Shown here one piece after another: positions 9,999 through 59,078 of a stretch of 64,000 bases of DNA. This DNA is from an uncultured Verrucomicrobiota bacterium (lineage in GTDB: Bacteria; Verrucomicrobiota; Verrucomicrobiia; CAZIPW01). A program made the translations under genes and the position numbers. Each line of letters starts with the position of its first letter. The first letter of the stretch is position 1. The notes beneath the pieces are model-generated. The model did not search any database. It was not told where the DNA came from and saw only the letters and a program-made list of their open reading frames with translations. The stretch lies in contig CAZIRU010000004.1 in assembly GCA_964541905.1 (NCBI GenBank), positions 17,588 through 81,587 of the forward strand, given 5' to 3'.

Positions 9999-10218
9999 AG
10001 GCTCTGCTAACAAATTCTGACAGGCGCGGCGCTGTCGTAACAGATTCAGCAGTAGTAAGATGCGCAGCGCTTCCGCTTAGCTGAAGTTGGGCGGTTTTGA
10101 GTTTTAACTTCGTTTCTCGGTCGAAGTCCGTGCCTCTAGCACGAGTTTTTCCCTCAAAGCCTTGTTAAAACTCAAACCTGCCTCAACCGCTCCTTGCCAT
10201 AATTTGTTAGCAGAGCCT
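9999..10218. repeat. long-hairpin element, copy 1 (same family as 54158-54389 and 58396-58566)
   Basis: The 18-nt arm AGGCTCTGCTAACAAATT (9999-10016) is the exact reverse complement of 10201-10218. An inner T-rich arm (10086-10108) pairs with an A-rich arm (10164-10187). The core carries CGTTTCTC (10111-10118) and the hairpin CGTGC-CTCTA-GCACG (10129-10143). The right arm overlaps the stop codon of the recO-like gene. Confidence 0.75.
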
Positions 10219-10801
10219 AGCGCGTCCCGAGTTCACGCGCGGCCCAGCTTTTGAGCGATTCCAAAAGAGAGGCCCCCGACATCTCGGGCGGCTCTTCTAC
10301 GGCCGCGCGCAAAAGCCCCTGAGCTTGTGAGCGCTGCGGAGCGCTCAGGATCTCAAGCCAGCCTTCCTTGACCGCGAAACCCTCGGCGGAGAGAATTTTG
10401 TAGAGGGCCTTGAAGGTGATAAGCTCGGCCGCGGCGGGATGTCGAGCGTAGTGGGCAAGCGCTTTTTGAAAGAGGTCGAAAACGCCGCCATAGTCGGGGA
10501 GCTCGCGAAAAGTCGTGCGGAGAAAATGCGCGAGCGCGCAAGCCTGGTTAAAAGCGCCGAGATTCTGCCCAAGGGCGCAAGGCCGCTCAAGCAGGTGTAC
10601 CTCGCGCGCAAAAAATGCCTTGCCCTTGGGCGTGGCGATAAGCTCAACGGAGTCGAAAAGCCCGTAGGGAAGGGCTACTTTGATGGGGAGCGTGAGCGCA
10701 AGAAAGCCCTCCGCGCGGGTGAAAAGCTCCCAGCTTGAGTAACGCTCGGCCTTGGGCGCGCAGAGCACGACGATGCCGGAGAGAACGCGCGAGGTGGGCA
10801 T
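10217..10801 (-). CDS. RecO-like DNA repair protein (tentative)
   Basis: The N-terminus SRVLSGIVVLCAPKAERYSSWELFTRAEG resembles the RecO OB-fold start. The position downstream of phoH-ybeY-ddl is reminiscent of ybeY-era-recO synteny. At 194 aa it is short for RecO. Confidence 0.35.
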   Translation of the reverse strand: MPTSRVLSGIVVLCAPKAERYSSWELFTRAEGFLALTLPIKVALPYGLFDSVELIATPKGKAFFAREVHLLERPCALGQNLGAFNQACALAHFLRTTFRELPDYGGVFDLFQKALAHYARHPAAAELITFKALYKILSAEGFAVKEGWLEILSAPQRSQAQGLLRAAVEEPPEMSGASLLESLKSWAARELGTR

Positions 10802-10841
10802 GAGAGGATTTTCGTCGAAACTACCTGTGAAGGCAAATCTC

Positions 10842-11768
10842 CTAACAAATCGCCAGCGCGTATTTCTCCACAAAGCGCGCGCGGGCGCCACGAAGCATCT
10901 CATTTACAAGGGTCGGGAAATCGCGGCCGGTGACCGAAGCCGACTTGGGAAGAAGGCTGGTGGCGGTGAGCCCTGGGAGCGTATTGATTTCGAGAAAAAC
11001 GGGAGTCCCATCATCGCGCAGGCGAAAGTCTACGCGGGCAAAGTCGCGGCAAGCGCTGGCCTTGAAAAAGGCGGCAGATTCCTCGCGGAGGCGTTTGGCA
11101 ATAGGCTCGGCAATCTTGGCGGGAAATTCGTATTGAGTCTCTCCCGTGGTGTATTTGCGTTGATAATCGTAAACGCCTCCCTGCGGGATGATTTCGACCA
11201 CTCCCAAGGCCTCGCCATTGAGGACGCCCACGGTCATTTCGCGGCCAAAGACAAAACGCTCGGCGAGAGTGGGCTGGCCATCGAACTTTTTGAGAGCGGC
11301 CTCAAGCGATTTTTCGTTTTCGACGATTTGAAGCCCGACCGAAGAGCCTTCGGCATTGGGCTTAAGGACGATCTTGGGGCCGAGGTTTTTCCAAAGGGCA
11401 TGTGCGGGCGGGGGTGTTTGAAAACAAACGCCCTCGGGAATTTCGATGCCGAGATTGCGCGCGAGCGTCAAGGAGCGTTGTTTGTCGAAACAAAGCTGCG
11501 AGCTTTGCGAGTCGGCTCCGGTATATACAAAGCCGCGATCTTCAAGGAGCGCCTGCAACGCGCCATCTTCGCCAAAAGTGCCGTGAGTGGTCAGGAAAAG
11601 GATGTCTTTTTGAGGATCGAGCGCAGAGGGCAGTTCGTAGCTATCGAGCGTCATAAGCGCGGCCTCGGTGTGTTCTCGCAGCGCTTCATAGACGGCCTTG
11701 GCTGAGCGCAGCGAGACTTCGCGTTCCGAGGAAGTTCCCCCTCCCAAAATGACGACTCTTCCCTTCAT
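10842..11768 (-). CDS. ddl: D-alanine--D-alanine ligase
   Basis: GGTSSEREVSLRS, TTHGTFGEDGALQALLE, an ATP-grasp region, and the C-terminus EINTLPGLTATSLLPKSA. I chose the start (MKGRVVILGGG) directly after the ybeY stop. Confidence 0.9.
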   Translation of the reverse strand: MKGRVVILGGGTSSEREVSLRSAKAVYEALREHTEAALMTLDSYELPSALDPQKDILFLTTHGTFGEDGALQALLEDRGFVYTGADSQSSQLCFDKQRSLTLARNLGIEIPEGVCFQTPPPAHALWKNLGPKIVLKPNAEGSSVGLQIVENEKSLEAALKKFDGQPTLAERFVFGREMTVGVLNGEALGVVEIIPQGGVYDYQRKYTTGETQYEFPAKIAEPIAKRLREESAAFFKASACRDFARVDFRLRDDGTPVFLEINTLPGLTATSLLPKSASVTGRDFPTLVNEMLRGARARFVEKYALAIC

Positions 11769-25040: not shown

Positions 25041-26030
25041 ATGTCTCTTACAGGTTCACTTTCTTCCGGCGTCTCGGCTCTAAAAAGTTTTTCAAAGGGG
25101 CTCGAGGTCATCGGCAATAATATTGCCAACGTTAATACCACCGGCTTTAAGGCTTCGCAAATCAGCTATTCCGATACCTTCAGTAATGAACTGGATACGG
25201 CGTCTTCCGCAAGTAGCACAAACAACAATACTTCACAAGTGGGGACGGGAGTGCAAGTGGCGGCCATCTCGACGGTCAATACTCAAGGATCGATTAATGA
25301 GACAGGGGTGAGCACCAACCTTGCAATAGACGGTGATGGGTATTTTATTGTTCGAAATATTCTCGGTGACGAAAATTATGCCACGCGCGCGGGAGATTTT
25401 GCCCTTGATGACGAAGGATATTTGGTGAACTCTTCGGGCTTGCGCCTGCAAGGAGTGGTGGGGGGCTCGATTAGCTACGATGTTACGCAGGATACGGAAG
25501 GTAATTTGATTTACACTTTGGATACGGCTGCCGCTACATCTCCTTCGACCGTGGGGGATATGAGTTTTACCTATTCGCTTGGCGTTGGGAGCGGGTTGAC
25601 GGTGGATAGCTCCGTTACCGCCACTCAGGCGCAGATCGAGGCCAACGCACCCTTTACTTCGGCAATTGCCTTTAGTTCGGATGGGACCATAACCGTTACG
25701 ATGAATGACGGGACGAGTTTTAAACTCGGACAGGTTTTGCTGATGGATTTTACGAATGTCAATGCGCTCAAAAAGACGGGTGATAATCTCTATACGAATC
25801 TGGCGGCGGCTGCTCCGACAACAGGTTCGGTGACGCTTGATCCAACCCTCAATCTTCCAGGGACAAGTGGTTTAGGGGTTTTTAAGACGAGGGCTTTGGA
25901 ACTTTCCAACGTCGACTTGACGGCAGAATTTGCGAACCTTATAGTCACGCAACGTAGCTTCCAGGCCGGATCTCGTATCATTACGGTAACGGATGATATT
26001 TTACAGGAAGTCGTTAATTTAAAACGTTAA
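25041..26030 (+). CDS. flgE: flagellar hook protein FlgE (short, 329 aa)
   Basis: N-terminus LEVIGNNIANVNTTGFKAS and C-terminus LELSNVDLTAEFANLIVTQRSFQAGSRIITVTDDILQEVVNL. Confidence 0.85.
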   Translation: MSLTGSLSSGVSALKSFSKGLEVIGNNIANVNTTGFKASQISYSDTFSNELDTASSASSTNNNTSQVGTGVQVAAISTVNTQGSINETGVSTNLAIDGDGYFIVRNILGDENYATRAGDFALDDEGYLVNSSGLRLQGVVGGSISYDVTQDTEGNLIYTLDTAAATSPSTVGDMSFTYSLGVGSGLTVDSSVTATQAQIEANAPFTSAIAFSSDGTITVTMNDGTSFKLGQVLLMDFTNVNALKKTGDNLYTNLAAAAPTTGSVTLDPTLNLPGTSGLGVFKTRALELSNVDLTAEFANLIVTQRSFQAGSRIITVTDDILQEVVNLKR

Positions 26031-38565: not shown

Positions 38566-39348
38566 ATGAATCTTGCTCTTTACGCCGCCGCTTCGGGAAT
38601 GGACTCCCAACAGCTCAATCTTAGCAATATTTCCAATAATATTGCCAATGTGAATACGACCGGTTTCAAACGTCAAAAAATCGAGTTTCAAGACATGCTC
38701 TATCAGAACATGAAGGCCCCTGGAGCCGATGCTGGCAACGGTGTCTATACCCCCACGGGTATCTCTGTGGGTAATGGTACGCGTGTGGCTTCGACTGCGC
38801 GGGTCTTTACGCAGGGTGAACTTTCCCAGACCGACGTGAATACCGATATGGCCATCAACGGTAACGGTTTTATAGAGATCCAGATGGCGGACGGTTCAAC
38901 GGCTTATACGCGCGATGGGGGCCTGAAAATTTCTTCGACGGGCCAGTGGGTAAATAACGACGGTCTTTTGGTTCTCAGCGGTTTCCAGCAGGTTGCCACC
39001 GATTATACCGATATCAGCATTTCCAAAAACGGCTACGTGACCGTCGAGTCGTCTGGAGGTTCACAAACCTTCCAGGTGCAACTGACGCGTTTCCCAAATC
39101 CGGCGGGGCTCAAGGCTTTGGGGGCCAATCTTTACGCCGAGACCCAATCCAGCGGTTCTGCAGAGACGGGCAATCCCAGCGAAAATGGCTTTGGCTCGCT
39201 TCAGCAGGGGTATCTTGAAATGTCGAATGTCGATGTGGTGGACGAAATGGTCAACATGATTGTCACGCAACGTGCCTATGAGATTAATTCCAAGTCAGTG
39301 CAGACAGCGGACAACATGCTGGCCCAAATCGCGCAACTCAAACGCTAA
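38566..39348 (+). CDS. flgG: flagellar distal rod protein FlgG
   Basis: MNLALYAAASGMDSQQLNLSNISNNIANVNTTGFKRQ and GYLEMSNVDVVDEMVNMIVTQRAYEINSK. Confidence 0.95.
   Translation: MNLALYAAASGMDSQQLNLSNISNNIANVNTTGFKRQKIEFQDMLYQNMKAPGADAGNGVYTPTGISVGNGTRVASTARVFTQGELSQTDVNTDMAINGNGFIEIQMADGSTAYTRDGGLKISSTGQWVNNDGLLVLSGFQQVATDYTDISISKNGYVTVESSGGSQTFQVQLTRFPNPAGLKALGANLYAETQSSGSAETGNPSENGFGSLQQGYLEMSNVDVVDEMVNMIVTQRAYEINSKSVQTADNMLAQIAQLKR
39320..39335 (+). promoter_or_regulatory. weak sigma-54-like match inside the flgG 3' end, upstream of flgA
   Basis: TGGCCCAAATCGCGCA has correct GG-N10-GC spacing but a poorer fit (5/6 at -24, GCGCA at -12). The C of GC is 14 nt from the flgA ATG, the same short spacing as the stronger sites. 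Confidence 0.25.
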
Positions 39349-42313: not shown

Positions 42314-42803
42314 ATCTTTGGAAAGTTTACTGGAGGCGCTTCGCGAGGAGCTGCGCGAATATGGTGCGCTGCGGAATGTCCTCGACGAACAACAGAAGTG
42401 CATCATCAAGCGTTCAGCCGCGGAGGTGACCGCAAAGAATTTGGAACTCAATGGCCAGCTGAGGGTTTGCTCGCAGTTGCGTGAAAAGCGCAAGGCGCTC
42501 ATGCGTTTGCTTACGCAGGCTCATTCTTTGCCGGAGAATGCCACTCTTTCCGCTCTTAACGCGGTATTGCCGCAGCCGGTGCAGCCGCTTTTCAAGGCGA
42601 TTGCGGACGAGATTAACTCAATGATCAAAATCTTGCGTCGTCGGCTGCGTCAAAATCAGGTCTTGCTCTCGCGTACCTGCGAGACGATCGAAGATACCTT
42701 GCGCGTATTCCAACCGGATTCTTTTACAAAAACCTATTCTGCCAAGGGGTCTGTTGCGGTTCGTTTTGGGCCTCTCGGCGGCCACATCCAAGCGGTAGGC
42801 TAA
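42306..42803 (+). CDS. FlgN-like flagellar chaperone (tentative)
   Basis: 165-aa helical protein directly before flgK. The N-terminus LESLLEALREELREYGALRNVLDEQQ resembles the FlgN family. Confidence 0.4.
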   Translation: MNESLESLLEALREELREYGALRNVLDEQQKCIIKRSAAEVTAKNLELNGQLRVCSQLREKRKALMRLLTQAHSLPENATLSALNAVLPQPVQPLFKAIADEINSMIKILRRRLRQNQVLLSRTCETIEDTLRVFQPDSFTKTYSAKGSVAVRFGPLGGHIQAVG

Positions 42804-42806
42804 CGT

Positions 42807-44222
42807 ATGTCGGGACTCATTTCATCGCTTCTGGCCAATGCCAAGACGCTTTCGGCGCAGACCCAGCAGATTTCCACAACCGGCAAAAACCTCCAGCATG
42901 TTGGCGATGAGTCATATGCAAAACAAACCGCCAACGTGGCCGACAGCGGGACGGTCGAAACGGCCTACGGGTTGCAGAGTATGGGGCTTACCGTTTCGTC
43001 GATAACCAGCTCTCGCAACGCCATAATCGACAATCAGATTCTTCGTGAAACGTGGAACAATTCTTCGCTTGAGGCCAAGTACCAGATGTCGGCGCTCATC
43101 GAGTCGGCCTTCGGGGAATCGATCGACACGACTTCGACGACAGGTTCCAAAAGCGGTATTTACGCCGCGCTAGACGATTTTTTCAATAAAGCTTCCGCGG
43201 CTGCGGCAAGCCCGGGCGAGGCTGCCACGCAGCAATCCTTTCTCGAAGCCGCCCAAACGCTTTGCGATCTTGTCAATGGGCTAAACACCTCTCTGGAGCA
43301 GATCGACTCCGACATTGTTTCGAATATTGACGCGAAGACTTCCGATGCCAATACGATTCTCTCCGAGATAGCGACCCTCAATAAAGAGATAGCGCGGCTC
43401 GAGCTGACATCCGGACAGCAAGCGCTCGACTTGCGCGATGCGCGTCAGGCGAAGCTCGAGAAGCTTGCGGAAATAATGAATTTCACGACAAGCACCTCCG
43501 CTTCGGGCAGTTTGGCTATTTCGGTGCTCAGCGAAGCCGGCAGTCCGGTGACGCTTGTGGATGGCGTCAACGTGCAAGGGACTCTTTCTTACACGGGGAC
43601 AAATTACGTTGTAACTTCCGGCAGTACGACTACTAATGTTTCAGTTACCGGTGGTAGCCTTCACGGCTTACATGCGATTCGCGCTAGCACGACCGATCTA
43701 AGCCTTGCCACTCTTTCGGATGATCTGGATGCCCTCAAGAACCAACTTGTTGATTCCGTAAATGGCGTTTATAGCCAAGGAGTTGTGGGTACTCCCAATA
43801 CTTTTTTTGAGCTCAATGCTGCGGGCGATTTGAAGATTGTCGATGGGATCGATGCTTCTACTCTTAAGACAGCAACAGATGGAGAATCTGGCAATACCGA
43901 CATTCTCCAGCAAATAGCCGATTTGGCTTCAGCGTCTTTTGATGGCACCACCGACTATATTTCAGGATCCTTTTCCGATTACTACAATAGCATGGTGACT
44001 TCAGTTGGCCAAGAGATGTCATCTACCGAGACGCTAAAGGAAACAAGTGATTTGGTCCTCAATACGCTTAAAACCCAGCGTGACTCGGAAAGTGGCGTGG
44101 ATACCAACGAAGAAATGACTCATCTGCTTCTTTTCGAAAGAGCTTTTCAAGGGACCTCACGCGTTATTTCAATGTTGGATGACATGCTGAGCATTATTGT
44201 GAACGATCTAGGTCGATTCTAG
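42807..44222 (+). CDS. flgK: flagellar hook-associated protein 1 FlgK
   Basis: The N-terminus ISTTGKNLQHVGDESYAKQ and the C-terminus EEMTHLLLFERAFQGTSRVISMLDDML. Confidence 0.85.
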   Translation: MSGLISSLLANAKTLSAQTQQISTTGKNLQHVGDESYAKQTANVADSGTVETAYGLQSMGLTVSSITSSRNAIIDNQILRETWNNSSLEAKYQMSALIESAFGESIDTTSTTGSKSGIYAALDDFFNKASAAAASPGEAATQQSFLEAAQTLCDLVNGLNTSLEQIDSDIVSNIDAKTSDANTILSEIATLNKEIARLELTSGQQALDLRDARQAKLEKLAEIMNFTTSTSASGSLAISVLSEAGSPVTLVDGVNVQGTLSYTGTNYVVTSGSTTTNVSVTGGSLHGLHAIRASTTDLSLATLSDDLDALKNQLVDSVNGVYSQGVVGTPNTFFELNAAGDLKIVDGIDASTLKTATDGESGNTDILQQIADLASASFDGTTDYISGSFSDYYNSMVTSVGQEMSSTETLKETSDLVLNTLKTQRDSESGVDTNEEMTHLLLFERAFQGTSRVISMLDDMLSIIVNDLGRF

Positions 44223-44259
44223 CCGGTTGGCTTCTGAAATTTTATCGCATGGCCAAGTT

Positions 44260-44275
44260 TGGCTTGTTTCCTGCT
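44260..44275 (+). promoter_or_regulatory. sigma-54 (-24/-12) promoter match upstream of flgL
   Basis: TGGCTTGTTTCCTGCT has exact GG-N10-GC spacing. The site is intergenic. The C of GC is exactly 12 nt from the flgL ATG. Confidence 0.5.
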
Positions 44276-44285
44276 TTAGGAAGCT

Positions 44286-45182
44286 ATGCGCATCACGCAG
44301 AATACGGTTATCAACAGTTTTCTTTCGGGCGTGCAGGATCTAACCGCCGAACAGGCAAAGTTGTATTCTCAGCTTACGACGGGGCAGAAAATAACAACTT
44401 CCTCGGATGACCCTTCGGGTGCGAGTGAGGTCATGGCTTTGCAGAGCGACCAGCGTAATCTCGAGCAGTATAAGGCGAATATCCAAACAGCCTCGGCGAT
44501 TAGCGAGGTGACCTACTCAAAAGTAAGCGCATTGAGCGATTTGGTGATTCAGGCCGAAGAAATCGCCACATCGGCTGACGATTTAACAGAATCAAGCGAA
44601 TACACCTCCTACGCAATCGAGGTGGAATCCTTAATCGAATCTGCCATTGACCTGCTCAACTCGAAATACAATGGCAACTATATTTTTGGCGGCACCGATA
44701 TTGAAAGCGCTCCAGTGGAGATAGACGGGTATGATGCCGATGGAAATATTACGGGAGTGACCTATGTTGGCAATGACGATGCCATTACCGTCAAAATTAG
44801 CGATGGGATTGCCGTTTCGCCTTATTCCACGCCCGAGGACACAAAAAAGCTTGTTGCTACGATCAACAATCTTATCCAGTTGCGCGAGGCCCTTTCACAA
44901 AAAGACCCCGCTGCGGTGGCCACGGTCAACGAGACGCTCCAGTCCGATGGGGATGAGGTGATTGACCAGATGTCGAAATCTGCATCGGTACAGGCGCGAT
45001 TGGAGATTGTTGAAGATCAAATTAGCGCTTCTTCTACTGCGATTACCAATCGTGTTTCTAGCGTTGCGGATGTCGATATAACCTCCGCAACGGTAGAATA
45101 TTACGAACTATACACCTCCTTCCAGGCAGCGATGTCTGCCGGAAGCAAAATGCTGAGCATTTCTTTGCTCGATTACATATAA
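44286..45182 (+). CDS. flgL: flagellar hook-associated protein 3 FlgL
   Basis: Flagellin-like N-terminus (MRITQNTVINSFL...LTTGQKITTSSDDPSGA) and a C-terminal helical region. 298 aa. Confidence 0.85.
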   Translation: MRITQNTVINSFLSGVQDLTAEQAKLYSQLTTGQKITTSSDDPSGASEVMALQSDQRNLEQYKANIQTASAISEVTYSKVSALSDLVIQAEEIATSADDLTESSEYTSYAIEVESLIESAIDLLNSKYNGNYIFGGTDIESAPVEIDGYDADGNITGVTYVGNDDAITVKISDGIAVSPYSTPEDTKKLVATINNLIQLREALSQKDPAAVATVNETLQSDGDEVIDQMSKSASVQARLEIVEDQISASSTAITNRVSSVADVDITSATVEYYELYTSFQAAMSAGSKMLSISLLDYI

Positions 45183-45184
45183 GT

Positions 45185-45200
45185 TGGCATGAGATCTGCT
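45185..45200 (+). promoter_or_regulatory. sigma-54 (-24/-12) promoter match upstream of fliW-csrA-fliC
   Basis: TGGCATGAGATCTGCT has exact GG-N10-GC spacing. It begins 3 nt after the flgL stop. The C of GC is 22 nt from the fliW ATG. Confidence 0.6.
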
Positions 45201-45220
45201 ATTTTACATTTTGTTAACTT

Positions 45221-45664
45221 ATGAAACTGACCGCACCAGCACCGCAAGATGTTGCCGACAAGGCGACGGCACAGCAGCAAATCCAGCTGCCCTCGGGCCT
45301 TATTGGCTTTCCAAATTTCAAGAGTGCCGAGATAGCCTATCGCAAGGAAGAGCATCCCTTTATGTGGTTGCGAGAGGTGGGGGGCGAGAAGATTTCGTTT
45401 ATTGTTGTGGAACCGGCTGGGCTTGTAAAGGGCTACGAAGTCGAGGTGACGGATGCGGATGTGGAGGCCTTGGGGCTCCAGTCTTCCGCCGATGCGCTTG
45501 TCCTTAATATTGCCACGCTGCATACGCAGAAGGGCAAGAATTCCATTTCGCTCAATTTGATTGGGCCCGTTGTCATCAACCGTCGCACTTTGGTGGGACG
45601 TCAAATCATCATCGGCAATTGTCAAAAATACTCGGCGCGTCACCCCTTGTTTGAAACCGAATAA
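45221..45664 (+). CDS. fliW: flagellar assembly factor FliW
   Basis: [18 protein letters not shown]...FMWL...FIVVEP...NLIGPVVIN is the FliW pattern. 147 aa. Confidence 0.85.
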
Positions 45665-45665
45665 C

Positions 45666-45962
45666 ATGTTGGTACTTTCCAGAAAAGTGGATCAGTCGAT
45701 TATGATCGGCGAGGACGTCGAGGTGCACATCACCCGTATCGACGGCGATGTGGTCAAGATAGGTATAGTGGCGCCGCGATCGGTGCCTGTTCACCGCAAG
45801 GAAATTTTTGAGTCCATACGCGAATCGAACCGCGAGGCGGCTAAGTCCCAGGGGAATGCCGCAACGCTTTTGATGAGCTATGCACAAAAAACTCATGGAA
45901 GTGGCCCCGGAGGCGGCCATGGAAGGAAAACATCCACGGAAGGAGACGCAAAACAATGGTAA
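45666..45962 (+). CDS. csrA: carbon storage regulator CsrA with a C-terminal extension of about 30 aa
   Basis: [47 protein letters not shown] is canonical CsrA. The tail to residue 98 is Gly/Lys-rich and overlaps the fliC start by 7 nt. Confidence 0.9.
45921..45944 (+). promoter_or_regulatory. two GGAAGGA motifs (candidate CsrA-binding sites) in the flagellin translation-initiation region
   Basis: GGAAGGA occurs at 45921-45927 and 45938-45944. The second contains the only SD-like AGGAG, 10 nt before the fliC ATG. Both lie inside the csrA 3' coding extension. Confidence 0.4.
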
Positions 45963-46810
45963 TCAATACTAATACCTACGCGACCAGCGCCACGAGGAGT
46001 TTGGACAACAGCCAAACGAATTTGGGCCGGTCACTTGCGCGGTTAAGTTCCGGGGATAAAATTCAACAACCTTCGGATGACGCCGCTGGTCTGGCCGTTT
46101 CTGAGAAAATGAAAGCTCAGCAGAAACGCGTTGAGGCCGCTTCAAACAATGTCGAAAACGCCATCTCTTACGTGCAGACGGCGGATGGCTTCCTTACCAA
46201 TATGTCGTCGATGCTCTCTCGCATGAGCGAGCTGACCATGATGGCGCAGGATGTCACCAAGAATTCCGAGGATATTTCGCTTTACGATCAGGAGTTCCAG
46301 TCACTCAAGGAACAGCTCCGTGCGACCATTGGTGGCGACGAGTACGGCATCACGGGTGAGCCTTTGGGCTGTTTCAACGGCATATCGCTCTTCGGTTCCT
46401 CGACAGGTCTCTCGGTCACAATTGGCGAAGGCTCTTCGCAGACGATGACGATCGGAGGTATCGACTTGCGTGCCGCCGATACGGTGATGCGCGAGCTGCT
46501 ATCGATCTCGACCGGTGCAACGATCTCAGTGAGCGATTCAGACGCTAACGATACGGTAACCAGCGCGATTCAGGAGTTGGCGACTGTTCGAGCGAGCTTG
46601 GGTGCTTCCCAGTCGCGCCTCGAGGTGGCTTCCGATCTGCTGACGGTTCAGGACGAGAATCTTTCTTCGGCCATTTCGACCATCCGCGATGTCGATGTGG
46701 CGTCCGAGTCCACCGCATACGCTCGCTACCAGATCTTGGTGCAAAGTGGCACCGCGATGCTGGCGCAGGCGAATACGATGCCTCAGACAGCCCTGCAACT
46801 TTTACAATAA
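45956..46810 (+). CDS. fliC: flagellin
   Basis: N-terminus [16 protein letters not shown]...[23 protein letters not shown] and C-terminus [29 protein letters not shown]. 284 aa. Confidence 0.95.
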
Positions 46811-50874: not shown

Positions 50875-51471
50875 ATGTCGCAGTTGCCAAATTTCGAGAA
50901 GGAGCATTTCGAGCGCGTTTTCCTTGCGGTCGGCGTTGAGGAGCCGACCTCTGGTGCTCTGGCCGAACTGGCGGAGGAGCGTTCGGGCTTTCGTTGGGTG
51001 GAGAGCTCCCAGTTTCACCTGACGCTGCGTTTTGTTGGTGAGGTGGATGCCTCTCTACGAGAGGCTATTGCCGCCAAAATGCGCCCGATTGCGGTCGAAC
51101 CTTTCATCCTTCCGGTTGAAAAAGTCGGAGTTTTTCCCTTACGCGGTCAGCCTCAGGTTGTCTATGCGGGTTTAGGCAGCGCTCATCCGCGACTCTTCCA
51201 GCTCCAACATCGGGTAGAGGACGCTCTTGCTTCATTGGGGTTGCCTCTTGAGTTGCGAGCGTTTACACCGCATATCACTCTGGCGCGCGTCTCGCGTGCA
51301 TCGCCACAGGCTGTGCGCGCCTTCATCAAAAGCCGCCGCGACTTTGCCGCGCCTCCCTTCCGTGTGGAAAGTTTTGGCCTCTATCGCAGCCGCATGACCC
51401 ACTTTGGCGCTCAATACGAACTTTTGGAAAGCTACCCTTTGCGCCACAAGGAGCGGCAAAGGGCCGGCTAA
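50875..51471 (+). CDS. thpR: RNA 2',3'-cyclic phosphodiesterase (2H phosphoesterase, ThpR/LigT-like)
   Basis: Two HxTx motifs (FHLTLRF and PHITLAR) at the expected spacing. Confidence 0.75.
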   Translation: MSQLPNFEKEHFERVFLAVGVEEPTSGALAELAEERSGFRWVESSQFHLTLRFVGEVDASLREAIAAKMRPIAVEPFILPVEKVGVFPLRGQPQVVYAGLGSAHPRLFQLQHRVEDALASLGLPLELRAFTPHITLARVSRASPQAVRAFIKSRRDFAAPPFRVESFGLYRSRMTHFGAQYELLESYPLRHKERQRAG

Positions 51472-51497
51472 ACATCTCGCAGTGGCGCTGGGCGTAC

Positions 51498-52202
51498 CTA
51501 TTTTTTGGGCTCCAAGATTCTCAATTCTCCCTTGGGCGTACGGTTTGGCGCGACGGCGTCCGAAATTGCCAAGGTGTTTGCGACGATCTTCTGACATTGT
51601 TCGACACTTGCTTGAAGCTGACGGATTTCCTCCGAGCGCTCGCTGGCGGACATGCGCTCGGAGTGGTTGCGCAACAGACTTGTCGAGAGCGAGATAATTG
51701 TCAGCGGGTTGCGCAGTTGTTCGCCTATGGATCGCAGAGCTTCTCTATGAGTGCAGGGCCTTTTGCAATCTTCCATTAAGTGTCCCCAAACAACTTTCAA
51801 TTCGGAATATATGGCTTCGGGCAGTGCCACCAGATGCATCGGGCAGCAAAATGGAGAGGGTTCGGCGGCCGAGCTTTCCCCTCCTTTCCGGTAGAAGAGC
51901 CTCACGCATAAGGCAGAGCTATCCTTGCGGCATAGATGCGTAATTGCTACATGTTCCCCTTGCGATGCGGTTAAGATGCTTTGTGCTTCAACTAGCTCGT
52001 TGAGTTGTTCCTTTTCGCAAAAAAGCGCTCGCAAAGGCATACCCACAAGGGCGTCCTTGGAATATCCGAGGAGTTCTTCTGCGGCCGTATTGCATGCCGA
52101 AATGATACCTCCGGCTTCGATATACAGCCAAGGGAGATGTTCGTAGGATTCTTTTTTTACAGAAGTGTTGGTAGGGGGGCGCTTCACTATTGGGGCGGAC
52201 AT
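51498..52202 (-). CDS. PAS-domain protein with a degenerate DHp (HisKA-like) helix and no ATPase domain
   Basis: PAS-like segment (GIISACNTAAEELLGYSKDALVGMPLRALF). It is followed by IGEQLRNPLTIISLSTSLL, which aligns to the H-box SHELRNPLT with Glu in place of the phospho-acceptor His. The protein ends about 60 aa later. Confidence 0.55.
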   Translation of the reverse strand: MSAPIVKRPPTNTSVKKESYEHLPWLYIEAGGIISACNTAAEELLGYSKDALVGMPLRALFCEKEQLNELVEAQSILTASQGEHVAITHLCRKDSSALCVRLFYRKGGESSAAEPSPFCCPMHLVALPEAIYSELKVVWGHLMEDCKRPCTHREALRSIGEQLRNPLTIISLSTSLLRNHSERMSASERSEEIRQLQASVEQCQKIVANTLAISDAVAPNRTPKGELRILEPKK

Positions 52203-52237
52203 AAGAGTCCTCTGTAGATCTTGTGAGAAAAGGGACA

Positions 52238-52468
52238 GTCGGAGGGAGTGAGTCTCCCTCCGACCCCACGGTCGCCAACTGGGATGGGGTAGGATCGATA
52301 GAGTTGGCGATTCGTGGCGGGAAATTTGTGGCGGCTGTCCGTGTTAAGGACAGCCGCCTGGTTCTCAAGGGACACCGTGTCCTGATTAAGAACCCCCTCA
52401 TGCGTTGCCGGAAATTTTGCGATTGAAAAAGGTCCAAAAACTCCTCCGGAGAACGCAAATTTTCTCCG
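52238..52468. other. cluster of stable stem-loops in a 460-bp intergenic region (candidate ncRNA or long structured leader)
   Basis: There are four perfect stems. They are an 11-bp stem (52238-52248 with 52254-52264), an 8-bp stem (52273-52280 with 52302-52309), an 11-bp stem (52330-52340 with 52348-52358) and a 7-bp stem (52447-52453 with 52462-52468). Confidence 0.4.
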
Positions 52469-52631
52469 CTGAATTTGAATCAACTTTTGTTTTCCTACCC
52501 TTTTCACAGGGATAACATTTACATTTGCCGTGCCACTTTTAAATTTATTTTATAAGTGACTGTTATAGAGTTGTTTTTTTTATATTCGTGTGACATTCGA
52601 CCGATTTATTGTCGTTTTTTTCTCTTTTTTC

Positions 52632-52659
52632 TTGAACTTAAGTTTACGCTCCTTAAACT
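52632..52659 (+). promoter_or_regulatory. candidate sigma-70 promoter of the sigma-54 activator gene (TTGAAC-N16-TAAACT)
   Basis: Lies in an A/T-rich stretch. The -10 element ends 7 nt before the ATG at 52667, which would give a leaderless transcript. Confidence 0.35.
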
Positions 52660-52666
52660 TTAGTTG

Positions 52667-54157
52667 ATGGATTTGGTTGCATTCTTTTCTGGCAAGGAAC
52701 TTATGAGCGCGGGTCTACTCGAGGGCGAGCCGACCAAGGGTCCGCTTTTAAAAACCATCGAACTTCTGCGCCCGGAACGCATTTTACTTTTGGCGCGCGA
52801 AGGGAGTGCCGAAGATGTAAAGACGCTTGCGGTGCTGCTTCCCGTCTACGTCCGGATGGAAACACTTCTTTGGAGCAATGGCGCTGGAGAGAGCATGAGC
52901 ACGTTGCTTGCGTTTCTGAAAGCTCACCGCGAGGAGCTTGCCGCCTATCGTGATGCCGCGATTCTCAACGCGGGAACGCCGCAAGAGCGGGCCACGCTTT
53001 GGATTTTAAAACATGACGGGACTTTTGTGGGAACGATGGTCGAGCCTCCCAGCGATTACAGTTTTTTGCCTGCGGTGCCCCAATATTTTGGCCGTGCGGC
53101 CGAAAAGAAAGAAACCTTTGTCGAGGAGGCGAGTGAAAATGCCGAGAGGCTTGAGGAGCCTTGGGTGAGTGTAGCGGCTAAGATTGGCTGCGTGGGGCGC
53201 AGCCCCCGTTTCCGGCAGATGTTGGAGGAAGCGGCGGCGTTGGCCAATCATCCTACCCCGATTCTTCTTTTTGGCGAAACCGGCACGGGCAAGGAAGTTG
53301 TTGCGCGTTTCGTGCACATGCTCAGCTCGCGTTCAGCCAAGCCCTTGGTTTGCGTCAACTGTGCTGCGCTTCCCGAAACTTTAGCCGAGTCGATTCTCTT
53401 TGGCCACGAGAAGGGTTCTTTTACGGGAGCCTACAAGCGCCAAGTGGGCAAGTTCGAGCAGGCGCACGAGGGGACGCTCTTTTTGGACGAGCTAGGCGAG
53501 CTTTCATTGGCCAATCAGGCCAAGCTTCTCCGCGCGCTGGAAACCCGCTGCGTGGATCCTCTGGGCAGCAATCAACCGGTGGAAGTGGACGTGCGGGTGA
53601 TTGCGGCGACGAATCGCAATTTGCTTCAGGCGGTGGCGCAGGGCCGTTTTCGCGAGGATCTTTACTATCGCCTGCGCGCGGGGGAGATCGACATCCCAAG
53701 CCTTCGCGAACGCGCCTCCGATATCCCGCTGATAGCGCTGCATTTGTTGGAGCGCTTCAATGCCACGTTGGCGATTCCCAAGCAATTTTCGCGTCAGGCG
53801 CTCAAGTTTTTGGAGGCCCAACCTTGGCCAGGGAATGTGCGCGACCTGATAAATACCATCGAGCGTGCAGCGCTTTTGTGCCCGCGCAATATTATCGAGC
53901 CCGAAGACTTTCGCGTTCAGACCGAATCCTTGCGGGCGGGCGCGCTAGGCAACTCGCTGCCGGCGCTCTACCCGGGTTTTTCGGTAGAGGGCTATCTCCA
54001 AAAGATTCGCCGCGATCTTTTCGAAAAGGCGCTGGCGCAAGCGGGGGGCTCGCGGGGCGAGGCGGCCCGCCTTTTGGGCATCACCCCCCAAGCCATCCAC
54101 AAATATCTCAAGCAGCAGGAGCAGGAAAACCTCATGCAAGAGAAGAACCCGCAATGA
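52667..54157 (+). CDS. sigma-54-dependent transcriptional activator (bEBP) with a non-receiver N-terminal domain
   Basis: AAA+ Walker A motif [14 protein letters not shown]-type loop [26 protein letters not shown], and a C-terminal Fis-type HTH ([18 protein letters not shown]). The N-terminal ~190 aa lacks the receiver DD/D/K pattern. Confidence 0.85.
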
Positions 54158-54389
54158 GAGCGTGTTTAGAATCTCTTCGCCATATTGCGCCGCATAATTT
54201 GCTGATAAACAATAATGAGCGGCGCCCTTCGGGTTGGGCGCTTTTGTGTTTTGGCGGCGTTTCTCGTTCGCATTTCGGGCTTCTAGCCCGTGTTGCTCGC
54301 TCGAAGAACCCCGATTTCATCGGGGCTTGGCCTTGCCAAAACGCCAAAATCATCCCAACAATACTGCCAAATAGATTCTGAACACGCTC
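54158..54389. repeat. long-hairpin element, copy 2 (same orientation as copy 1)
   Basis: GAGCGTGTTTAGAATCT (54158-54174) starts on the base after the activator stop codon. It pairs with AGATTCTGAACACGCTC (54373-54389) as 17 bp with one G-T. The core at 54233-54289 is homologous to copy 1 (27/35 over the CGTTTCTC...TCTAGC block) and to copy 3 (39/49). Confidence 0.75.
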
Positions 54390-54465
54390 TAAGGGCTTTT
54401 GTTTTGGGTGGCACGCAGCCTTGCGTCGAGCGCACCGCGAATTGCCGTGCAAAACGCCCGCGCCT

Positions 54466-55062
54466 CTACTTTACCTCAGCTATGGGGCAATCCGCGCGGA
54501 TGCCTGCAAAGTCGGCCGGGCAGGTGCGGAACTTATTCTTGTACATTCCCGATTCTTTTGGTCGCGGGTCGCGCTGATTAAACTTGGCGTTGGGCTTTTT
54601 GTCGTAGGTCACCGATACCTGTCCATGGATCGTGTGATAGGTCAGTTGTGCGATCGGCATTCCCGCATAAACACGCACGGGTTTGACGACGGAGAGCTCC
54701 ATCGTCCAAAAATTGCAAAAGCCCACGTCCCCGCGACCGGCGGTCAGGTGGATGCAAATGCCCAGCCGTCCGGTGCTCGATTTTCCGTCCAAATAGGGCA
54801 GGTGCTTATGGCTCTCGGTGTACTCAAGGGTCGAGCCCAGATACAGCGTTCCGGGCTGCAACACAAAACCCTCTTGCGGGATCTCGAAGTGCCGGAGCTC
54901 ATTTCTTTTGGCGGCGTCCAGCACGTCCATGTCATAGACGGCCAGATGCGGACTCAGATGCACATCATAGCTGTTGGAGCCCAGACATTCGCTGTCAAAC
55001 GGGTCTATTACAATGGAACCTTCGCGAATCGCCGCAAGGATAGCTGTGTCAGAGAGGACCAT
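54466..55062 (-). CDS. dcd: dCTP deaminase
   Basis: The N-terminus MVLSDTAILAAIREGSIVIDPF, plus GKSSTGRLGICIH.TAG.GDVGF and WTMELS. Confidence 0.85.
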   Translation of the reverse strand: MVLSDTAILAAIREGSIVIDPFDSECLGSNSYDVHLSPHLAVYDMDVLDAAKRNELRHFEIPQEGFVLQPGTLYLGSTLEYTESHKHLPYLDGKSSTGRLGICIHLTAGRGDVGFCNFWTMELSVVKPVRVYAGMPIAQLTYHTIHGQVSVTYDKKPNAKFNQRDPRPKESGMYKNKFRTCPADFAGIRADCPIAEVK

Positions 55063-56566: not shown

Positions 56567-57274
56567 ATGGCAGAAGAACATATTTCCCCTTCACGTCCTT
56601 TGGCGGTCGATTTGGATGGGACGCTGATCAAAACCGATTCGCTGCTGGAGGCTTGCGCGGCGCTTTGGTGCGCGGAGCCCTTTGCGTTTGTGAGGCTTCT
56701 CTTTTCGTCGGTTTTTTCCAGCGCGGCGGCGTTCAAGTGGGCGCTTTTTTCTCGCGTGGATTTGCAAACCCTTGAGGTTCCCTTTAGCGAAGCGCTCCTC
56801 GAGTGGCTGCGCGCGCAGAAGGCCTCCGGTCGCAGCCTTTTGCTTGTGAGCGCCACGCCGCAATTCTGGGTCGAGCGTTTGGCGGCGCGTGCGGCCGAAG
56901 CGGGCCTGCGTTTTGATGAAAGCATTGGCAGCACTCCGGTTGAAAATCGTCGCGGCAAGGGCAAGGCGGCGTACTTGGTCAAGCGTTTTGGCCGCGGCGG
57001 CTTCGACTACGTTGGCAACTCCCAAGCTGATATGGCGGTTTGGGCGGCGGCGGGCACGGCTTACAATGTGAACCCCTCGCGGCGGCTCGCGGAGTTTGCG
57101 CGCAAAAGGAAAATCGAGCTTTTGCAGATTGCCTCGCAGGAGCAAAGCCCTTTTATGGAGCGCTGGGATGAATTTCTGCGGATGCGCTCGGGGCTGGCAC
57201 TTTCAGCTTTTGCAGGGATGTTGACAGGGCTTGTCGGCTGGGCGGCATGGACGGGTTGGGGGCTTTTCTTATGA
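56567..57274 (+). CDS. HAD-superfamily (subfamily IB-like) hydrolase with a C-terminal TM segment
   Basis: DxDxT motif in LAVDLDGTLIKTDS. Later motifs are LLLVSATP and GNSQADMAVW. The hydrophobic tail overlaps the next gene (ATGA). Confidence 0.6.
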   Translation: MAEEHISPSRPLAVDLDGTLIKTDSLLEACAALWCAEPFAFVRLLFSSVFSSAAAFKWALFSRVDLQTLEVPFSEALLEWLRAQKASGRSLLLVSATPQFWVERLAARAAEAGLRFDESIGSTPVENRRGKGKAAYLVKRFGRGGFDYVGNSQADMAVWAAAGTAYNVNPSRRLAEFARKRKIELLQIASQEQSPFMERWDEFLRMRSGLALSAFAGMLTGLVGWAAWTGWGLFL

Positions 57275-58395
57275 TTGCACTTGACGTTACTACCACCCTG
57301 CGAAACCGTTCGCTTACGGGCATCCAGCGTGTCGTCATCGAATACCTGCGCGCCTTTCGCGAGCTGCGCGAGGACGTTCGTGCGGTGCGCGTCGAAAAGA
57401 GCAAGGGGCTTTTCGCGCTTTCCGAGCGCGAGACGACCTCGCTTCTCGAGCGCGGGCTCAACAACCGTCCGGCTTTGCGGCGCAAACGCTGGCAATGGCT
57501 GCGCAACGCGGGCGTTCCCTTGCAAATTTCCTCTACCGACGTGCTTTTTGCGCCGGAGTTTTTTGATGAGGCTCTTCTGGAATACCTCCCGCATTTTTCT
57601 CGGAGCGTTGCAATGCTGCACGATCTCAGCGCGCTCAAACATCCGCAATGGGTAACTAGCCCCAAGATGGCTGCCGCCTATCCGCGTTACGCTTTGGCTT
57701 TGTCACGTTTTTCGCGTGTAGTAGTTCCTTCGCTTGCCTCCAAGACCGATTTGGAGCGCTATTGGGATTTCCTTGAGCTTCCTTTGCGCCCGGGCGTGAG
57801 CGTCGTTGAGCACGGTCTGCGCGAGATTGGTTCCGGCGAGCTTCGCAACGCTCCTCCTTCGGATGCGCCCAAAAACCTTTTGTGTTTGGGCACGCTTGAG
57901 GCTCGCAAAAATCATCTTTGTTTGCTGGAGGCCTGCCACAAGCTCTGGCAAAACGGCGAGCATTTCACGCTGACGGTGGTTGGGGCGCAAGCTTCAAGCG
58001 GGGCCGCTGCCGCTGAGAAAATCCTCCAGCTTGCCAAGGAGGGCTTCCCCGTCCATTGGCGCGGGACGCTCAGCGACGTTGAGATTTCGCAGCTCTGGCG
58101 GAGCGCTTGGGCCTTCGTCTATCCCTCTTTCGAGGAGGGCTACGGCCTTCCGGTGATGGAAGCTCTTTCGCGCGGCGTGCCGGTCGTGTGCGGGACGGGT
58201 GGGGCCTTGCGCGAGCGCGTACGCGAGGGCGGCTGCGAAGTGTGCGAAGCTGTGGACGCGGAGGGCCTTGCGCGCGGGGTCAAAAACATCCTCAATCCCT
58301 CCGAGCGCGAGGCGCGTGCGGCCGAAGCGCGCCGTCTCAAGCCCCGCAGCTGGCACTCCGCCGCCAAGGAGCTCTTGACTCTTTTGCGAGCCTAA
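57271..58395 (+). CDS. family-4 (GT-B, Glycos_transf_1) glycosyltransferase
   Basis: The C-terminal pattern AWAFVYPSFEEGYGLPVMEALSRGVPVVCG is the EX7E GT4 signature. Confidence 0.8.
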   Translation: MIALDVTTTLRNRSLTGIQRVVIEYLRAFRELREDVRAVRVEKSKGLFALSERETTSLLERGLNNRPALRRKRWQWLRNAGVPLQISSTDVLFAPEFFDEALLEYLPHFSRSVAMLHDLSALKHPQWVTSPKMAAAYPRYALALSRFSRVVVPSLASKTDLERYWDFLELPLRPGVSVVEHGLREIGSGELRNAPPSDAPKNLLCLGTLEARKNHLCLLEACHKLWQNGEHFTLTVVGAQASSGAAAAEKILQLAKEGFPVHWRGTLSDVEISQLWRSAWAFVYPSFEEGYGLPVMEALSRGVPVVCGTGGALRERVREGGCEVCEAVDAEGLARGVKNILNPSEREARAAEARRLKPRSWHSAAKELLTLLRA

Positions 58396-58566
58396 GAGCC
58401 TATCCCGATAGGAGAGCGTAGGCGAGGCGCGAGGATTTTTGTTTTTTAGCAAGGCTTCGGAGGAGGAAGTGGGCTAGAAGCCCATACTCCGGGGGAGAAA
58501 CGCCGCTAAAAGACAAAAAGACCGCGAGTTTCTCGTCCGCGCCAGCTAACCTATCGGGATGGGCTC
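58396..58566. repeat. long-hairpin element, copy 3 (reverse orientation relative to copies 1 and 2)
   Basis: GAGCCTATCCCGATAGG (58396-58412) starts on the base after the GT4 stop. It pairs with CCTATCGGGATGGGCTC (58550-58566) as 17 bp with one G-T, and the right arm overlaps the stop of the AP2-like gene. The reverse complement of 58471-58519 matches 54241-54289 at 39/49 positions without gaps. Confidence 0.75.
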
Positions 58567-59078
58567 TAACCCTTTGCCCCTTCGTCGGCTTGGCCTTGCA
58601 GTCTTTTCTTTGCGGCGATTTTCCTGAATACGCCTGCGCCAAAGCGGCGGATGAGGCCCTTGTTGCGGATTCGGCAGGCTTTTTTCAAAGCCTTTTCCTC
58701 GCCATACTTCAAAATCGAGATGCTTGTGGTTCGCTGCACTCCCGGCATCGGGTGCCAAGTCACCAGATAATAGGGGGCGCTTGTGCCGTCGGCTTTCTTT
58801 TTGTTGACGCGGGTCACTCCGATGACTCCCGAGCGGTTTCTTTTGTTTTTGCAAACAATGTTTTTGCCTCGCACGCGGATGCCCTGACGTTGCAATCGCG
58901 AGAGTGTTTCGTCGCGGAAGAGTCGGGCGGCTGTTTGGGAAAGTCGTTTTCCGCCGGCGGCCTGATCGCTAAAAAACTTCATAATGCGCTCATCTCCCCT
59001 GACGATGCGCACCAACCAGCCGCCGCTTGAGGGCTTTTCCATTCTCGAGATATTGCGATTGGGATTCGGCAAAGCCAT
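58566..59078 (-). CDS. putative DNA-binding protein with two AP2/ERF-like repeats (tentative)
   Basis: Two segments resemble AP2-type beta-sheet-plus-helix units. They are GGWLVRIVRGDERIMKFF...AARLFRDE and GVIGVTRVNKKKADGTSAPYYLVTWHP...YGEEKALKKACRIRN. The protein is basic. Confidence 0.35.
   Translation of the reverse strand: MALPNPNRNISRMEKPSSGGWLVRIVRGDERIMKFFSDQAAGGKRLSQTAARLFRDETLSRLQRQGIRVRGKNIVCKNKRNRSGVIGVTRVNKKKADGTSAPYYLVTWHPMPGVQRTTSISILKYGEEKALKKACRIRNKGLIRRFGAGVFRKIAAKKRLQGQADEGAKG

Follow-up and report, generated by a model that had tools for sequence, protein, structure and literature searches.

A long-hairpin element between a sigma-54 activator gene and dcd in an uncultured Verrucomicrobiota bacterium is probably a miniature inverted-repeat transposable element with IS1031-type ends

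Why does a long hairpin begin on the very nucleotide that follows the stop codon of a sigma-54 activator gene and occupy the gap between this gene and the convergent gene dcd? The question is raised by a 64,000-nt stretch of DNA, here called the window, from a lineage of uncultured Verrucomicrobiota from peat or wetland samples. The original prediction, made from the letters of the window, described the gap as holding the second copy of a dispersed long-hairpin family, which might work as a bidirectional terminator or RNA-stabilising structure. We refer to the three family members within the window as copy 1, copy 2 and copy 3. Copy 2 is a 232-bp element (54158-54389; its features are given on the plus strand) closed by 17-bp inverted ends. 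The left arm, GAGCGTGTTTAGAATCT (54158-54174), starts one base past the activator TGA (54155-54157) and pairs with the right arm, AGATTCTGAACACGCTC (54373-54389), through 16 Watson-Crick pairs and one G-T pair, which confirms the predicted closing stem. The outer stem is imperfect and reaches 54157-54182 and 54365-54390 (26 nt, 85% complementarity). The stop codon of dcd (54466-55062, minus strand, DCD domain) comes 76 nt beyond the right arm. The inner hairpin, the apex CGTTTCTC, the small hairpin GGGC-TTCTA-GCCC and an extra hairpin were likewise all found where they had been predicted. We consider it likely that copy 2 is a MITE (miniature inverted-repeat transposable element), that is, a non-autonomous element, with terminal inverted repeats (TIRs) of the type found in the IS1031 group of the IS5 family.

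The closing arms were compared with the ends of IS1031-group insertion sequences (ISs). ISLrh is an 857-bp element of the IS1031 subgroup (IS5 family) with 17-bp terminal repeats GAACCTGTCTAGTATCT, and the IS1031 group inserts at TNA with exclusively a 3-bp direct repeat (PMC12016507). The end of copy 2 shared 13 of 17 positions with the ISLrh repeat (P about 1.2e-5 for a single comparison). The two were merged into the degenerate pattern TNAGARCSTGTYTAGWATCT, which was scanned in representative genomes. At least 120 genome stretches carried the pattern, against about 70 chance matches estimated for the whole collection, and among the matches listed many genomes were matched repeatedly and in inverted pairs. 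Pairs of TNAGARCSTGTYTAGWATCT bound 857-bp elements in Pediococcus cellicola (L126) and Liquorilactobacillus oeni (L130), and the element in P. cellicola encodes DUF4096 and DDE_Tnp_1 proteins.

Among the matches listed, six pairs bound MITEs of 160-161 bp in Oscillospiraceae, Ruminococcus and other Bacillota metagenome-assembled genomes (MAGs; L115 1961-2127, L122 1830-1996, L156 5571-5736, L167 3700-3865, L173 6366-6532 and L184 808-973). Their ends read GAGCCTGTTTAGTATCT, GAGCGTGTTTAGTATCT (16/17 to copy 2) or GAACCTGTTTAGTATCT; in the L122 MITE, 16 of the 17 TIR positions agree with the copy 2 end. The target duplication was perfect in five of the six (TTA/TTA or TAA/TAA) and read TAA/TTA in the other. 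All six fold as long hairpins (-56 to -92 kcal/mol) whose inner arms are T-rich and A-rich. Although the interiors of these MITEs vary by genome, every one of the six forms a near-perfect long hairpin, so that MITEs with IS1031 ends may in general keep their whole body complementary while its sequence turns over.

Copy 2 belongs to a dispersed family, as had been predicted. Copy 1 (10000-10217, plus strand) is 218 bp long, and its TIRs, GGCTCTGCTAACAAATT and AATTTGTTAGCAGAGCC, are complementary at 17 of 17 positions. Copy 3 (58396-58566, minus strand) is 171 bp long. One metagenome scan yielded two further full members on unrelated JGI contigs, L056 (Ga0265338_10363283) and L057 (Ga0172380_10216519). 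Family members range from 171 to 232 bp, and complementarity of the terminal 17 bp is 17/17 in copy 1 and L057, 16/17 plus a G-T pair in copy 2, 16/17 in copy 3 and 14/17 in L056. L057 resembles copy 2, including its hairpin CCCCGAT...ATCGGGG. L056 is homologous to copy 3 from end to end (75% over 197 nt), and the neighbouring genes differ. A 21-base core pattern occurred in the window exactly at copies 1, 2 and 3, where 0.01 matches were expected. A core covariance model (R1), built from the core alignment of family members (A4), scored copies 1-3 at 97-128 bits and found nothing else credible in the window. A short hairpin at 45048-45110, GTTGCGG...CCGCAAC, which lies in a coding-like stretch, reached 18.9 bits (E about 0.002) and looks like a chance match. 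The model gave no match in the Bacillota MITEs, whose interiors are unrelated to the copy 2 family.

Related ends were also seen at two loci from other genomes. In a Verrucomicrobiae MAG (MFD09495.bin.1.6; L142, 3761-3990), TAA is followed by GAGCCTGTCTAGAATCT, which is identical to the copy 2 end at 15 of 17 positions. The CGGCCATTTTGC that comes after it resembles the subterminal region of copy 2, and an inner T-rich/A-rich hairpin ends in AAAACAAAAATCCT, like copy 3. The 8-kb locus showed no right end, and the element may be a family relative that is distant or has decayed. A Chlamydiales MAG (L171, 1547-1722) carries a 175-bp near-perfect palindromic element with ends GAGACTGTCTACGAACT... 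and T-rich and A-rich inner arms, which matches the core model weakly (26 bits).

The flanks of the elements bear on how they arrived. Copy 3 reads TAA, then GAGCCTATCCCGATAGG...CCTATCGGGATGGGCTC, then TAA, a perfect 3-bp direct repeat (58393-58569 with the element). Copy 2 is flanked by TGA, the activator stop codon, on the left, a TNA trinucleotide by the published rule (PMC12016507), and by TAA (54390-54392) on the right, so that one base differs. TNA stands on both sides of copies 2 and 3, at a junction in contig L066, where ...GCTC is likewise followed by TAA, and L056 has it on one side; copy 1 and L057 lack it. All 12 end-flanks examined end in A, and 11 of the 12 begin with T or C. An IS1031-group transposase would bind both identical inverted ends, insert at 5'-TNA-3' and duplicate three bases, and such an enzyme, encoded elsewhere in the genome, would mobilise the element in trans. 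This targeting would lead family members to abut or overlap stop codons and to fill convergent gaps exactly, and copies 2 and 3 do occupy convergent intergenic gaps. Family members probably touch stop codons because TAA and TGA are TNA sites, and copy 2 probably starts right after the activator stop because its closing arms are IS1031-type repeats with TNA flanks.

The same contact with stop codons was seen at the other two copies. A glycosyltransferase gene (57247-58395) has the left TAA of copy 3 as its stop codon, and the right end of copy 1 overlaps the stop codon of a minus-strand gene (10217-10903). On the other side of copy 3, the stop codon of a minus-strand gene (58566-59078) consists of the last TIR base and two duplication bases. 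Since this stop is the element end plus the duplicated TA, the C-terminus of the encoded 170-aa open reading frame (ORF) was probably reshaped by the insertion of copy 3. An AP2-domain hit to this ORF was sub-threshold (20 bits against a cut-off of 33).

The family has spread to unrelated loci and decays to a solo end. Contig L066 derives from the same sample as L064, a contig identical to the window. The first 30 nt of L066 are identical to 54364-54393, the right arm of copy 2, and adjoin yidC; past ...GCTCTAAG (...CACGCTCTAAG) the contig diverges into the yidC upstream region. This 30-nt identity points to a second copy in the genome whose right arm is the same. Directly after the yebC stop of L066 (3238-3267) stands GGGAGCGTTAACGAAGT, identical to the left arm of L057 at 16 of 17 positions; the rest of the element is missing, leaving a solo-end remnant. 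On the 3' side of yebC, L057 carries a full copy and L066 a solo end; L099, L102, L104 and L106 carry nothing there. More distant relatives with yidC-yebC-M50 peptidase synteny have a gap of 15-51 nt at the site and no element. Short-read Logan contigs of the source samples that carry proteins identical to those of the window (L001, L064 and L065) stop inside copy 2 three times, on both sides (window 54365 and 54197). Samples SRR8925805 and SRR8925774 contain this organism.

Searches in wider collections did not match the family to a described one. There was no gathering-score match to Rfam in the whole window and nothing relevant at E <= 10 in 53900-54700. Three core patterns gave chance matches only (L054, L055 and L098) in 185,579 representative genomes. 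One pattern scan of viral contigs gave 29 chance matches, none supported by the core model, and blastn against a plasmid collection gave no match to the family. We found no description of this hairpin family in the literature searched. Loci of activator relatives at 60-67% identity (L058-L063) held no family member, and the fetched loci of yebC relatives at 71-83% identity (L066-L068 and L099-L106) held no full copy. The closest dcd among the representative genomes was 69% identical, the closest activator among 5.8 billion proteins 67%, and the YebC of L057 shares about 59% identity with its counterparts in Opitutales and Puniceicoccales. The hairpin family seems to be new, but is probably of a known kind: a MITE with ends of the IS5 family, IS1031-group type. 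The original prediction had foreseen that the family might turn out to be a known repeat. This is so for its kind; the family itself was found neither in Rfam nor in the 185,579 genomes.

Is the element instead a terminator that evolved in place? The hairpin GGCGCCC-TTCGGGTT-GGGCGCT followed by TTTGTGTTTT (54221-54252), with its 7-bp G+C stem directly behind the activator, had been read as an intrinsic terminator, and it does pass a terminator-like scan. The module is not family-wide: it passes in copies 1 and 2, two of the five members, and fails in copy 3, L056 and L057. This hairpin and the convergent gaps filled by copies 2 and 3 are consistent with an intrinsic terminator or RNA stabiliser that evolved locally and serves the convergent activator and dcd in both directions. 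Such an origin is contradicted by homologous copies at unrelated loci in the same and other organisms, and the scan found no terminator-like site in copy 2 on the dcd strand. L056 lies between two divergent gene starts, that of a plus-strand gene and that of a membrane-protease-like gene on the minus strand (HELGH motif recognised in the sequence), so there is nothing to terminate. At copy 1 the upstream gene is co-oriented only when the opposite strand of the element is considered. The elements thus have no fixed orientation relative to the genes around them, and no conserved sigma-70-type promoter was found across the five members. We regard a local origin of this kind as very improbable, and the proposed bidirectional role is not supported as the primary nature of the element. 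It is plausible, however, that the G+C hairpin and T-run of copy 2 are a terminator for the activator gene, in which case the MITE would incidentally terminate or stabilise the activator transcript. The prediction was also right that the length, conserved loops and compensated pairs exceed what a terminator needs.

The fold of copy 2 is far more stable than composition predicts. The 321-nt region with copy 2 folds at -128 kcal/mol, compared to -102.8 +/- 4.7 in dinucleotide shuffles (z = -5.4; 0 of 100 shuffles as good), and its opposite strand folds equally well (z = -5.3). The values for copies 1 and 3 were z = -5.8 and -4.3. The long-hairpin fold arises because almost the whole body is self-complementary, and both the DNA and a read-through transcript would fold as one long hairpin. 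In the minimum-energy fold the conserved T-rich inner arm CTTTTGTGTTTTGGC (54241-54255) pairs with GCCAAAACGCCAAAA (54335-54349); the conserved T-run is thus this arm, the partner of the A-rich arm. In the core alignment this helix 2 has 15 pairs, 89% of cells paired and four pairs changed on both sides. The A-rich inner arm (GCCAAAACGCCAAAA...) lies with the conserved GCCTTGCC at 54330-54359. Between the arms is a conserved asymmetric apex (54256-54308) with CGTTTCTC (54258-54265), GGGC-TTCTA-GCCC (54277-54289) and a CGAAG segment, which contains invariant alignment columns and compensated pairs in helices 4 and 5. It is followed by the optional extra hairpin CCCCGAT-TTC-ATCGGGG (54309-54325), for which L056 has a different hairpin and copies 1 and 3 have none. 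Outside the T-rich arm, the side hairpin GCGCCGC/GCGGCGC (54187-54193/54219-54225) encloses a 25-nt A+T-rich loop. It is common to copy 2 and L057 and shows one compensated pair, C-G to T-A (34-70).

Several observations weigh against the assignment to IS1031-type MITEs. Full copies number five, and a perfect target duplication is found at one of them. The flanks of copy 1 (CCA/TAG) and L056 (TGA/TTT) are not TNA duplications. Those of L057 are better read as CTAG/CTAG or TA/TA (CTA/TAG by another register) and are inseparable from an extension of the palindrome. The ends differ strongly among subfamilies (4-11/17 identities; 11/17 between the copy 1 end GGCTCTGCTAACAAATT and the L057 end GGGAGTGTTAACGAAGT). 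The match of copies 1 and 3 to ISLrh is weak (7-8/17), and a close match to a documented IS end is seen for the copy 2 type only. In a search for paired 17-bp inverted repeats, neither the 64-kb window nor the fetched lineage contigs showed an autonomous IS with matching ends, and all fetched loci returned MITEs and noise only. An end-like 17-mer in L102 (three mismatches) had no element around it. Finally, the core is the best-conserved part of the element (72% mean column identity, 45 invariant columns), the reverse of simple MITE decay. The core is 90% paired with 12 pairs changed on both sides, values that 0 of 500 shuffles reached, and in slid controls the paired share falls to 38-56%. 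Copy 2 and L057 differ by 14 compensated pairs, side hairpin and apex included, against 10 broken ones. Compensated pairs are found between the ends and also in local hairpins. That the two ends are identical is expected in any transposon, but compensation inside local hairpins is not, and transposase recognition of the ends leaves it unexplained. As the five sequences are related by descent, the covariation statistics of the core are suggestive only.

The pairing and the double-sided changes in the core would also fit a structured non-coding RNA family, either a cis-acting element of 3' untranslated regions or a small RNA, that is under selection for its fold and whose likeness to IS ends is secondary or coincidental. 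The compensated changes between copy 2 and L057 lie in the side hairpin and apex helices, the loop motifs CGTTTCTC and TTCTA are invariant, and the strand opposite to the alignment folds slightly better in all five copies (by small margins in four). However, Rfam gave no match even at E <= 10, no conserved promoter was found, gene orientation is inconsistent and one copy stands between divergent starts. The isolated mismatches showed no strand bias (seven G-T compared to eleven A-C), and related sequences are known to exceed the shuffle control even when they have no structure. An RNA family also leaves unexplained why the arms match IS1031-type ends at 13/17 and 16/17 and are flanked by TNA. 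We consider this explanation quite unlikely. The strand tests themselves leave undecided whether selection acts on RNA or on single-stranded DNA.

On a further reading, the conserved asymmetric core (about 100-130 nt) would be a functional structured RNA or protein-binding module that travels as a passenger inside IS1031-type ends. The core, made up of the T-rich arm, CGTTTCTC, GGGC-TTCTA-GCCC, GCCTTGC and the A-rich arm, has been preserved in subfamilies that have unlike ends and in organisms whose YebC differs by about 17%. We judge such a passenger to be unlikely, though with a chance that is not negligible.

The element could also be a REP/REPIN-type element moved by a RAYT or a palindrome derived from IS200/IS605, both of which act on single-stranded DNA hairpins; the absence of a strand bias fits selection at the DNA level. 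Copy 2 is a long palindromic intergenic repeat, and its small conserved hairpin GGGC-TTCTA-GCCC could be a recognition hairpin. REP sequences are described as G+C-rich palindromes of 20-40 bp with a GTAG or CGTC head and have neither long terminal repeats nor duplications (PMC3733652). The family is far longer (171-232 bp), has the long TIRs and TNA flanks that those families lack, and its arms match IS1031-group ends. By eye, the ends of copies 1-3 show no GTAG or CGTC head beside a short G+C stem. An origin of this kind is very unlikely.

The pairing of 5' and 3' ends recalls hok or aapA mRNAs, in which a folded message encodes a short hydrophobic peptide, and so raises a type I toxin-antitoxin-like locus or small-protein gene. 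Copy 2 and L057 do contain a frame of 22-32 codons that ends at the conserved TAG of GGGCTTCTAGCCC (peptide ...FCVLAAFL...GF). This frame has an in-frame TGA in copy 1 and no start codon in L056 and copy 3, it lacks a Shine-Dalgarno sequence, and its hydrophobic stretch is only about nine residues. After GCCC a 1-nt indel shifts the other open frame among copies. The five copies have no ORF with a conserved start codon in common, and for this reason we give a toxin-like peptide almost no credence.

Among known systems, IS1031-group elements and their MITEs are the closest to copy 2. Shared features are 17-bp ends beginning GAG or GAA, with identities of 13/17 to ISLrh and 16/17 to the MITE ends of Oscillospiraceae; at copies 2 and 3, TNA flanks and a 3-bp duplication that is perfect in copy 3 and one base off in copy 2; a size of 160-230 bp; and one long hairpin with T-rich/A-rich inner arms. 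In contrast to the IS1031 group, family members have no transposase gene, and a cognate IS was found neither in the window nor in the fetched lineage contigs. In contrast to IS1031-type MITEs, subfamilies of one genome carry different ends (GAGCG..., GAGCC... and GGCTC...) around one asymmetric core.

Other dispersed bacterial repeats offer parallels in behaviour. Like the Correia elements of Neisseria, the family consists of dispersed, hairpin-forming MITEs with long inverted ends, but there is no sequence relation. Correia elements have 26-bp ends and a TA duplication. They also have documented promoter and IHF-site functions, and nothing comparable was found in copies 1-3. Correia elements (CREE/NEMIS) are 100-200 bp long, occur as internal-segment size variants and are co-transcribed with neighbouring genes, and their hairpin RNA is cleaved by RNase III at the inverted ends (PMC10969869). 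ERIC sequences, or intergenic repeat units, of enterobacteria are imperfect palindromes of >100 bp that lie in transcribed intergenic regions in either orientation, have internal-insertion variants and alter mRNA stability when at gene 3' ends (PMC10969869). They differ from the copy 2 family in sequence and lineage, and their transposase and mobility are unknown, whereas the ends of the copy 2 family point to a specific IS group. The pneumococcal SPRITE repeat contains a rho-independent terminator-like sequence, and QMITE2 of Coxiella lies mainly in 3' untranslated regions of ORFs (PMC10969869). Copy 2 combines the terminator-like feature of SPRITE with the 3' location of QMITE2, but unlike in SPRITE the module, present in two of five family copies, does not define the family. 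With its long double-stranded stem, read-through RNA would likely be an RNase III substrate, as in Correia and ERIC. By analogy, the family probably behaves like Correia, ERIC, SPRITE or QMITE2, as an incidental terminator or stabiliser and RNase target.

The spacer between copy 2 and the dcd stop (54393-54465) had been proposed to be a degenerate partial copy. GGGCTTTTGTTTTGGG (54393-54408) is indeed present and pairs with GCAAAACGCCC in the fold. A partial copy could not be demonstrated: the hairpin of this stretch of about 75 nt is weak (z = -1.4, mononucleotide shuffles), its local similarity scores are marginal (12 compared to 8.9 +/- 1.4 for copy 2, and 15 compared to 9.2 +/- 1.6 for L056), and the core model did not detect it even at E <= 10. 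A candidate sigma-54 promoter noticed by eye in the spacer (TGGCACGCAGCCTTGC) was dismissed, as its GG-N11-GC spacing is off by one and it is aimed into the 3' end of dcd.

The neighbouring genes gave some further observations. The activator ORF (52664-54157) has the domains Sigma54_activat, AAA_lid_14 and HTH_8 and no receiver domain, and distant homologues (about 40% identity) carry an RtcR domain. It is preceded by a glycosyltransferase gene, a LigT-type 2',5' RNA ligase gene (50875-51471) and a gene for a PAS/HisKA protein (51498-52202, minus strand). This order is largely kept in relatives (L058, L062, L063 and L064), with unannotated ORFs in place of the PAS protein in L058 and L063. The locus (50875-54157) could be an RNA-repair-type regulon without adjacent rtcBA. 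In the representative genomes the closest homologues of dcd (59-69% identity) belong to Verrucomicrobiota, Bacteroidota, Patescibacteria, Ignavibacteria and Bdellovibrionota; because they are scattered over phyla, the sequences suggest that this dcd type was laterally transferred. Upstream of the region lies a block of late flagellar genes (FlgN, FlgK, two flagellins, FliW and CsrA; window about 42700-46800, L064 1-4144). Direct repeats at 25115-25150 and 38634-38669 are probably conserved N-termini of rod and hook proteins.

If copy 2 is a MITE, an IS of 0.85-1.1 kb with DUF4096 and DDE transposase genes and GAGCGTGTTTAGAATCT-like or GAGCCYATCCCGATAGG-like ends is expected in the genome. For annotators, the repeat breaks short-read assemblies of this Verrucomicrobiota lineage and they could take it for a structured RNA or a terminator. 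TNA targeting brings an element onto TAA and TGA stop codons and may even let it supply the stop codon, which would give a mechanical cause for a feature that seems designed. With a core better conserved than its ends, the family is a test case for the retention of a MITE through a hairpin RNA useful to the host. Should the core prove to be a passenger, the MITE would serve to carry a regulatory RNA to gene 3' ends, and the core would be a new RNA family.

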